Of a DNA stretch of 64,000 bases, positions 21,007 to 22,551 are shown one piece after another. The stretch spans positions 43,881 through 107,880 of the forward strand of contig JAZRRH010000013.1 of the NCBI GenBank assembly GCA_045650525.1. Direction: 5' to 3'. The translations under genes were made by a program, and so were the position numbers. This DNA comes from Candidatus Nanosyncoccus sp. (GTDB taxonomy: Bacteria > Patescibacteriota > Saccharimonadia > Saccharimonadales > Saccharimonadaceae). How positions within the stretch are numbered: the stretch's first letter is position 1; the number at the start of each line of letters is the position of its first letter. The notes under the pieces were generated by a model. The model was not told the DNA's origin. It saw nothing but the letters and a program-made list of their open reading frames with translations, and did not search any database.

Positions 21007-22551
21007 CTACCAATCTTCAACGAGGGTGAATTCTTTGCCGGCGATTTCGATGATAGAGTCCGGTTTGGCGCCTCTGGTAGTGAGTTCGGCGCGGATGCCC
21101 ATCTTTTTCATGATATCGCGAAGCCTATTGACGCTGGCATAGTTATCAAGGTCGGTGCGGCGGGCGAATTTTTCGATCTTTTCACCGGTGACTTTGTAGT
21201 GGTCATCGTCTATTTTTTCGACCTTCCAAGTGTCTTTCATGGCGTTAGGGCTAAGAGATATAGTAGGAATATCAGCATACTGATTTCGCTCATGCTTCAC
21301 AGCGCTCCGGGAAAAATCTTCGTCGGCTAATCGGGACTGCGCCGAAATTTCAGTTTCGTACTCGTCTCGACTATCCTCCTCAGATTTTTCTCGGGCCCCA
21401 CCAATATTCGCGAAATCAGTATGCTGAGATTCCTTCTTATTCTCTTCCACGATCGCGGCTAATTCTCTTAAGAGTTCTGTAAGGCCTTGGTGGGCGGCGC
21501 TTGAGATAGTAAAAATCTTTGCTTCTGGGTTTTTTTCTAAGATAGAAGCCATTTGCATTTTAACAATATCGTCATCGACGCCTTCGCATTTGGTAAGCGC
21601 AACTATCTCTGGGCGAGAAGCGAGGTCGGAGTATTTTTCTAGCTCGTTTCTGATGGTTTGATAGGCCTCGCCGGCATCGTCGTTGTAAATATCGACAAGA
21701 TGGAGCAAAACAGCAGTACGATCAACGTGCCTTAAGAATTCGTGGCCGAGACCTCTTCCTTCGGAGGCGCCCTCAATTAGCCCTGGAATATCAGAGATAA
21801 GTAGGTCTTTATCATCTATGGTAGCGACGCCGAGGTTGGGGGTGATAGTCGTAAAAGGATAATCGGCGATTTCGGGCTTGGCGTTCGAAACGACAGAGAG
21901 AAAAGTGGATTTGCCGGCATTTGGAAGGCCCACAAGACCAACGTCGGCCATTGATTTTAGTTCTAGTTCTGCTTCAAATTCTTCGCCGGGTTCGCCAACT
22001 TCGGCGACCAGGGGTGCTTGGCGGGTGCTGCTCTTGAAATGTGCGTTACCAAAGCCACCGTCTCCGCCCTTTGCGATGACGGCCTCGTCGCCATCGTGCG
22101 TCAGATCGGCCAAGAGGATTCTTTCTCGGGGCGTGTCCGAAACCCCTGTCGACCCTTCGGGTCGTCCGCGTCCCAAGGGGCGGTCGTCCACAGGGGTTTC
22201 GGCGCTACTCCTCGCCTTGCCAGGCTCCGGACCCCCTTCGAAAGAACCTTCTTGGCCAATTCGGTACACCACTGTGCCGACGGGGACGTCGACGATGAGG
22301 TTTTTGCCGGAGCGGCCGGCAGCGCGCTGGCCAGAGCCGTTCTTGCCGTTTTCGGCTTCGAGAATAGGGGTAAAACGAAAGTCTACTAGGGTATTAGTGT
22401 TGCGGTCGGCACGAAAAATAATATCTCCGCCTTTGCCACCGTCACCCCCGTCTGGGCCACCTTTCGGGATATAAATCTCATGGCGAAAAGATACGGCACC
22501 ATTGCCGCCTTTTCCCGCCTTTAAACTCACTTTCGCTTTATCTACAAACAT
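21007..22551 (-). CDS. obgE: GTPase ObgE/CgtA with two in-frame hairpin insertions
   Basis: [34 protein letters not shown] and a C-terminal OCT-like domain. Confidence 0.97.
21272..21427 (-). repeat. In-frame palindromic insertion 2 in obgE (156 bp, family A)
   Basis: Perfect 18-bp IR TCAGCATACTGATTTCGC/GCGAAATCAGTATGCTGA; near-identical to the trmD insertion. Confidence 0.92.
22105..22260 (-). repeat. In-frame palindromic insertion 1 in obgE (156 bp, family B)
   Basis: Outer stem GGCCAAGA/TCTTGGCC plus TTCTTTC/GAAAGAA; inner perfect 13-bp IR CCGAAACCCCTGT/ACAGGGGTTTCGG. Confidence 0.85.

Follow-up and report, generated by a model that had tools for sequence, protein, structure and literature searches.

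A palindromic repeat in the obg gene of Candidatus Nanosyncoccus and the probable spread of its stem into host codons

The obg gene of a Candidatus Nanosyncoccus sp., encoding the Obg/CgtA GTPase, carries an in-frame insertion that folds into a long branched hairpin, and one arm of the outermost stem of this hairpin consists of codons for residues conserved in all Obg proteins. The question raised by this locus is how codons of a host gene came to be paired with the foot of an inserted repeat. The gene lies in a 64,000-nt stretch of contig JAZRRH010000013.1 (assembly GCA_045650525.1, positions 43,881 to 107,880 of the forward strand), which is called the window here and whose first letter is position 1. 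It occupies 21007..22551 of the minus strand and encodes 514 amino acids; the 156-nt multibranch hairpin is found at 22260-22105 of the same strand. The hairpin belongs to a family of palindromic repeats of Candidatus Nanosyncoccus/Saccharibacteria that are GC-rich and modular and have no transposase. Taken as a whole, the explanation that we hold to be probable is that the stem of this copy has spread into the neighbouring host codons, with template switching during replication as the agent.

The identity of the host gene was supported by matches of its product to the ObgE/Obg chains 4csu, 1lnz and 1udx (E ~1e-85). For placement of the insert on Obg, sequence alignment to the ObgE structures was used: residues 2-97 and 147-372 of the protein aligned to E. 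coli ObgE, which puts the insert in the N-terminal Obg domain, between residues 98 and 105 of ObgE. It is presumably translated as 45 extra residues. An AlphaFold2 model from a 5-sequence Obg alignment had a mean pLDDT of 35, and no structural claim was drawn from it. On the minus strand, positions 22260-22240 (ATTGGCCAAGAAGGTTCTTTC) pair with 22125-22105 (GAAAGAATCCTCTTGGCCGAT); read 5' to 3', the outer stem is ATTGGCCAAGAA-GGTTCTTTC paired with GAAAGAATC-CTCTTGGCCGAT. Its outer 12 bp, comprising 10 Watson-Crick pairs and 1 G.T pair, set ATTGGCCAAGAA (I-G-Q-E) opposite CTCTTGGCCGAT, the codons of the conserved L-L-A-D. Folding of the 176-nt region gave -93.9 kcal/mol, as compared with -67.3 +/- 4.5 kcal/mol for dinucleotide shuffles (z = -5.9), and none of 200 shuffles was as good. 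Further in, a GGGG/CCCC clamp lies between a G/A internal loop and side hairpin A, and a CGACC-CGAA-GGGTCG hairpin at 22150-22164 forms part of an apical module, C. The original prediction had described, at these positions, a multibranch hairpin with IGQE codons against conserved L-A-D codons, a perfect 13-bp inner inverted repeat (CCGAAACCCCTGT/ACAGGGGTTTCGG) and a CGACC...GGTCG hairpin, and all of these were recovered. An Rfam scan of 21900-22450 at E <= 10 returned chance-level matches only, with no family and no intron match.

The extent of the insertion was determined by comparison with empty alleles. The genus comprised 369 species genomes, in 355 of which Obg was found; about 65 of these sequences align through the insert, and most others have a short loop. 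Most orthologues in the genus read P-I-G-T-V-V-K-R-D-G-K-I-I-A-D-L at the site. The codon span P..ADL measures 48 nt in these empty alleles and 183 nt here, a difference of 45 codons (135 nt); the insertion reported in the original prediction is thus real, with 45 codons in place of its estimate of about 43 residues. The L-L-A-D of the 3' arm is present in every empty allele, so that part of the paired segment lies outside the element, in agreement with the earlier proposal that the outer stem uses host codons. The hairpin is 156 nt long and the net insertion 135 nt, while the element from GGTTCTTTC to GAAAGAATC measures 132 nt; that is, the net insertion equals the element plus one codon. In relatives lacking the nested module, the corresponding values are 99 net nt (33 codons) for a 96-nt element.

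These lengths leave the 5' arm to be accounted for. The empty allele L008 reads Y-K-D-G-E-K-I-A-D-L, and its filled sister L103 reads Y-R-V-G-A-K-(33 codons)-L-A-D-L. In the filled alleles as a group, the element is preceded by the four codons [I/V]-G-x-K, the Gly and Lys of D-G-E-K being retained in 10 of 14 species. Every departure from D-G-E-K goes toward the reverse complement of the 3' flank: the change GAT -> ATC/GTC mirrors Asp GAT/GAC, and GGT -> GGC/AGC mirrors Ala GCC/GCT. By length, homology and direction of change, the obg 5' arm probably consists of the host D-G-E-K loop codons in rewritten form, and is neither an element end nor added DNA.

The relation between the two arms was followed in an alignment (A1) of both arms of 15 distinct species alleles, with pairs counted over the 24-bp stem. 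The third position of the Ala codon was paired in all 15 species (G-C in 10, A-U in 5), as GCC/GGC or GCT/AGC, and that of the Asp codon in 12 of 15 (A-U in 6, G-C in 6), as GAT/ATC or GAC/GTC. The first position of the Leu codon covaried too, and ten pairs had changed on both sides. The covariation score was 0.248 as compared with 0.156 +/- 0.013 for shuffles, and none of 500 shuffles reached 0.248, a count that is no probability, as the shuffle control keeps species relatedness; with partners slid by 2 or 3 columns the score fell to 0.06-0.11. The co-changes of the arms fall in several separate clades of the Obg tree. Since the 5' arm tracks the synonymous Ala and Asp codons of each species, homogenisation would have continued after insertion, which a single selection of the target by base pairing would not give. 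On this reading, the sequence of one arm, and with it the encoded amino acids, would be dictated by the synonymous codons that conserved residues use in the other arm, and these alignments suggest a clean, replicated case of this. The unconstrained loop is usually the side that yields. In the obg of another Saccharibacterium (L121), the conserved host Leu has become Cys (TTG -> TGC), by which the stem is made perfect; therefore, conversion can apparently run into host codons too.

The arms and the cores have had different histories. The outer stem is common to at least 15 species which carry different cores; it was therefore inherited and not made by the present core. When the insert was masked, the Obg tree placed the filled alleles in one clade (28 rows), and along this tree core type changes at least 25 times. 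The genome under study (G000) has a PEPGKAR-type core with module C, and its sister G175 (support 100/97) has a different core between near-identical arms. The obg arms are orthologous and predate the cores, and it is the cores that were swapped in sister species. In other species, unrelated families occupy the same obg loop, including the family of a second obg insertion described below (L204). Two further copies of this genome, in uvrB (C13:108150-108270) and gatA (C13:118190-118300), just beyond the window, share a virtually identical core of about 75 nt, which differs only by one extra G and a matching extra C in the clamp; their arms of 17-21 bp are completely different.

Two obg alleles stand apart on the tree. 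The empty allele L008 (G021) sits inside the filled-allele clade as sister to a filled allele, a placement that reflects either recurrent insertion or allele exchange by recombination. The insert of L185 (G145) is chimeric, its left arm and left core half belonging to the PEPGKAR family and its right half and right arm to the TERP/ARERSEND family, and little of its hairpin is intact (-51 kcal/mol), which points to recombination of alleles that carried different inserts. A single ancestral insertion followed by plain vertical descent was rejected in view of the nested empty allele together with the chimera, and recombination between obg alleles is likely.

Pairing with host flanks, for which the original prediction had proposed a check, was found at other copies as well. 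Because the strict stem tracer halted at the junction loop in about one third of cases, only clear cases were used for the difference between hairpin span and net insertion. In three species, the net insertion in a gene at C4:62918 measures 57-93 nt, as much as the core alone, with hairpins of 121-161 nt. The arms there align with host residues, e.g. A-[FY]-[KR]-E-L..N-C and A-V-[LF]-A-K-S-E-E, and are complementary partly via synonymous changes (TGT -> TGC, GCT -> GCA) relative to the empty G000 allele. In lepA, at a site between ILDAV and ALIFDSYFD, the whole hairpin including its arms is inverted between species: L074 and L092 share 87% identity when one is reverse-complemented and 70% when both are read in the same direction, and for L087 and L166 the values are 83% and 66%.

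In the 741-kb genome (24 contigs, ~43% GC), BLAST and a scan for GC-rich islands detected about 14 related copies, some of them intergenic, and at least 11 housekeeping genes carry inserts: obg, uvrB, gatA, queA, rluB, argS, valS, pepN, pcrA, tsaD and an RNA methyltransferase gene. With so many genes affected, the presence of two insertions in one essential GTPase, to which the original prediction had drawn attention, is less striking than it seemed. Among species-representative genomes, more than 118 stretches contain the core 19-mer CGGAGCCTGGCAAGGCGAG, and almost all of these belong to Saccharibacteria/Nanosyncoccus; the titles of the matching records name Candidatus Saccharibacteria and the genus Candidatus Nanosyncoccus, mostly from ruminant gut. 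Of 111 copies, 65 in sense and 23 in antisense orientation (88 together) fall inside ORFs of 150 aa or more, each of them in frame and free of stops; the remaining 23 lie between genes, and none of the copies interrupts a gene. The inserts make use of all six frames (sense 13/31/21, antisense 3/2/18), none with stops, and therefore the peptide is incidental but read-through is required. Each copy has a conserved GC-rich core closed by a long, locus-private stem that is AT-rich like the host. A literature search found no paper describing the family.

Several other origins of the insert or its arms were rejected. An intron or bypass insert does not fit, as all intragenic copies are in frame without stops and no Rfam intron was matched; for an intein, 45 low-complexity G/P/R-rich residues are too few. 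The obg arms had no other match in the genome apart from one of 17 nt in a repeat protein, regarded as chance, so that carry-over of the arms from a donor site was rejected. A target-site duplication around the core was rejected too, since the GAR triplets of the left and right junction showed no correlation across 79 copies.

In the mechanism that we propose, the element proper would extend from GGTTCTTTC-GAA-GGGG to CCCC-GA-GAAAGAATC and lie in a beta-hairpin loop of the Obg N-terminal domain. After insertion, its stem would have spread outward into host DNA, with the constrained 3' L-L-A-D codons serving as template and the tolerant 5' D-G-E-K codons being overwritten by their reverse complement to give I-G-Q-E. 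The process may be ongoing, each species' 5' arm mirroring its own synonymous Ala, Asp and Leu codons. The agent would be intramolecular template switching during replication (quasipalindrome correction), by which the arms of an inverted repeat are homogenised and the segment between them is inverted. GC-rich cores would be exchanged among loci and alleles by conversion or recombination, with no encoded transposase. Through template switching, as documented in other work, hairpin stems arise and are maintained, inverted-repeat arms become homogenised and spacers are inverted, also in coding sequence (PMC8794818, PMC8604942). It is most likely the agent here, because arm homogenisation (at neutral host positions too), stem extension into the flanks and inversion of the segment occur together. 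For the arrival or replacement of the core, the candidates are microhomology-mediated copy choice, conversion between copies, or recombination between alleles after DNA uptake. To a fuller form of the proposal we would give about even chances: the core would seed a hairpin which, without SbcCD or mismatch repair, is extended base by base into host codons through template switching, Ile or Val following the Asp codon and Gly or Ser the Ala codon, while inserts flip and cores are exchanged within inherited stems.

The genomic setting may be relevant to this mechanism, which is proposed for a lineage in which searches detected neither the SbcD hairpin nuclease nor MutS. The G000 genome (96% complete) gave no match to SbcD (TIGR00619) or MutS_V (PF00488), and none to the Y1 transposase (PF01797), reverse transcriptase, TnpB, rve or DDE_Tnp_1. 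SbcD scored over the cut-off in none of the 41 genus genomes searched and in 13 of 14 control genomes. From E. coli genetics, a lack of SbcD and MutS would fit tolerance of long palindromes.

Several points weigh against the proposed spread of the stem by template switching. Template switching was inferred from comparative patterns, with no switch event directly observed. The homology of D-G-E-K with I-G-Q-E rests on four codons (7/12 nt identical between L008 and L103) together with length parsimony. To the relatedness retained by the shuffle control is added that selection for a paired stem can equally yield covariation across related species. At some other sites, a class of their own, the hairpin is no longer than the net insertion, and the arms are a conserved outer module (GGTGGTCAGAATAC...) belonging to an extended version of the element; spreading of the stem is common but not universal. 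In a strand-symmetric count of mismatches in the arms, which was used because the count from minimum free energy (MFE) structures was biased, G.T outnumbered A.C on the element strand, at 104:70 for sense and 48:31 for antisense copies, where a purely symmetric DNA process predicts no excess; in intergenic copies the ratio was 26:32.

Of the other explanations, selection for a function of the hairpin, which would keep the stem paired as a DNA or RNA recognition signal for spread of the element, as an RNase III or regulatory mRNA site, or as a translational pause, deserves consideration although we think it rather unlikely. It would agree with the strong covariation, synonymous host sites included, with the conserved G/A internal loop at the junction and the covarying stem B, with the greater number of sense than antisense copies (65 vs 23) and with the mild G.T excess. 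However, this excess runs the same way in sense and antisense copies and does not flip with gene orientation, so that selection on mRNA structure is not supported, and selection for structure at the DNA level or on the element strand is possible. In addition, whole hairpins have been inverted between species without loss, six frames are used with cores freely swapped, no Rfam family was matched, and most orthologues have no element, so the host does not need it. An inverted duplication of the target at integration is improbable in our judgement. Here the 3' flank would have been copied backwards, e.g. by snap-back synthesis from a hairpin, and the 5' arm would be new DNA, which would explain why each copy has a private, host-like AT-rich stem, why the arms are unique in the genome and why identical cores at two loci bear unrelated arms; the 3' arm in obg is also certainly host DNA. 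But the net insertion in obg is about 21 nt too short for a new arm, unless three host codons were deleted simultaneously, and the 5' arm retains the Gly and Lys of the empty D-G-E-K loop. Moreover, the arms are common to at least 15 species with different cores and so predate the present core, and a copy frozen at insertion would not follow later synonymous changes of the host. The suggestion in the original prediction that the end of the element may be an inverted copy of the target was not sustained, given the alignment of the 5' arm with the D-G-E-K loop and a net insertion of element plus one codon.

Its other suggestion, that the target was chosen by base pairing, fared worse and appears very improbable. 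The end of the element would have carried ATTGGCCAAGAA and integrated at the complement, and there is indeed 12 bp of complementarity to the host flank directly adjoining the terminal repeat. No other copy in the genome bears the obg arm, however; the arm aligns with host loop codons, and orthologous arms differ exactly where the host codons do, which would need a matched guide in each species. The host codons in the stem are an informative clue to mechanism, as had been supposed, but, as the arms keep tracking each species' synonymous codons, not a sign of target choice. Chance complementarity beside an ordinary in-frame repeat has practically no probability. The empty site does already contain small inverted repeats, ATCGGC (I-G)/GCCGAT (A-D) and GGC (Gly)/GCC (Ala). 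Nevertheless, at least 10 Watson-Crick pairs in the same register are expected for a random genomic 12-mer with a frequency of 5.8e-5 (~6e-5 for the register), and the pairing recurs with species-specific codons in 15 species and at other loci; the covariation and the 12-mer frequency together refute chance, which the original prediction had named as a ground for its own refutation. Stem spreading by template switching is retained as the preferred explanation, and the parts of the obg copy to which it refers are listed in Table 1.

Table 1. Parts of the obg insertion and a related copy, in window coordinates
Feature	Position	Strand	Basis
Whole 156-nt multibranch hairpin (element plus probably recruited host codons)	22105..22260	-	fold, MFE -93.9 kcal/mol
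5' outer arm ATT GGC CAA GAA (I-G-Q-E); probable host loop codons, D-G-E/K-K in empty alleles	22249..22260	-	codon alignment of empty L008 with filled alleles; covariation
Element 5' terminal repeat GGTTCTTTC	22240..22248	-	kept in many copies elsewhere, e.g. L062, L085, L096, L111, L121
5' junction GAA + GGGGG; GAA opposite GA of the 3' side, conserved G/A internal loop	22232..22239	-	fold and copy comparison
Side hairpin A GCCTGGCAAGGC, inside the family-marking 19-mer CGGAGCCTGGCAAGGCGAG	22214..22225	-	fold; 19-mer search
Stem B 5' arm CCGAAACCCCTGT	22190..22202	-	stem sequence varies among copies, pairing kept
31-nt module C CGCCCCTTGGGACGCGGACGACCCGAAGGGT, nested within the stem B loop	22152..22182	-	L001 vs L002 and other alleles
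Stem B 3' arm ACAGGGGTTTCGG	22137..22149	-	13-bp perfect inverted repeat with CCGAAACCCCTGT
3' junction CCCC + GA	22126..22131	-	fold
Element 3' terminal repeat GAAAGAATC	22117..22125	-	copy comparison
3' outer arm CTC TTG GCC GAT = host L-L-A-D, conserved in all Obg orthologues	22105..22116	-	orthologue alignment
Related superfamily copy in rluB-like pseudouridine synthase, own 26-bp private stem	13359..13511	-	C13:57230-57420

Module C is a later addition nested in the apical loop of the element. It sits in the GGCGAC loop of stem B, with direct CGAC copies at 22183-22186 and 22148-22151, and is absent from every other Obg-site copy examined. It was also found in the loops of copies C12 (with an unrelated core, in argS, C12:4728-4778), C24 and C23, with variants in rluB and pcrA. 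The module looks like a tiny mobile unit that targets hairpin loops. A second repeat family is represented in the window by obg insertion 2 (21272-21427) and an insertion in trmD (23838-23997), the peptides of which are about 70% identical. The uvrB loop between G-W and Q-L-x-F (L031-L058) is hypervariable in the genus, with 0 to ~80 extra residues, and holds members of different element families, in either orientation, along with short remnants.

Among known systems, the family most resembles the Rickettsia palindromic elements (RPEs), which are palindromic repeats of ~100-150 bp without a known transposase. As in that group, the copies lie in frame in unrelated housekeeping genes of a reduced genome (88/88 intragenic copies here) and add extra segments at tolerated positions. 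The families RPE-1 to RPE-10 (Ogata et al. 2000) are each described as encoding a conserved peptide (PMC10969869), whereas six frames are used here. The phylum is also a different one, and the likeness is one of features. In contrast to RPEs, the basal stem here is specific to the site and takes in host codons while the apical core is conserved, inherited stems receive different cores, and modules are nested. [quoted passage not shown] The conserved ends here are short (TTCTTTC-GAR-GGGG / CCCC-GAG-AAAGAA), but the long outer arms are locus-specific. Unlike MITEs, the family has no target-site duplication, and only the nested module C shows a direct CGAC repeat. Unlike both MITEs and REP/REPIN with their RAYT, it has no cognate insertion sequence (IS), Y1/RAYT (PF01797) or DDE transposase in G000, and 88 of 111 copies are intragenic, which differs from REP/REPIN. 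Cyanobacterial SDR elements, reportedly described by Elhai et al. in 2008, are tiny and inserted inside other hairpin repeats; the CGAC-flanked module C in the loop of stem B would be comparable, in a different phylum and with different sequences.

The behaviour of the arms resembles quasipalindrome template-switch mutation, reportedly studied in E. coli by Ripley and by Lovett. The features in common are arm homogenisation, multi-base compensatory changes, creation and extension of stems and inversion of spacers, in coding sequence too (PMC8794818, PMC8604942). Unlike the known cases, the switching proposed here would be seeded by a mobile repeat and recur at many loci, its direction would be set by protein constraint (L-A-D as template, loop codons overwritten), and it is deduced from comparative patterns alone.

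If this explanation is true, a selfish hairpin repeat would not only enlarge an essential protein by a loop but also rewrite adjacent host codons into its own stem, and synonymous choice at L-A-D would be coupled to the identity of nearby residues (I/V, G/S). This would account for the conserved centre and private ends of the copies, which MITEs do not have. The system would span 369 species genomes, many loci and several core families, and would offer a natural, replicated system for the study of template-switch mutagenesis and palindrome tolerance in minimal CPR (candidate phyla radiation) genomes seemingly without SbcCD and MutS. In Saccharibacteria, such inserts also interfere with the alignment of orthologues, with statistics of gene length and with covariation tests of RNA structure. 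The finding would extend the notion of 'selfish DNA in protein-coding genes' from Rickettsia to a second, unrelated lineage with reduced genomes, and would represent, in the fuller form of the proposal, a mode of co-evolution between mobile element and host gene not described for any bacterial repeat family.

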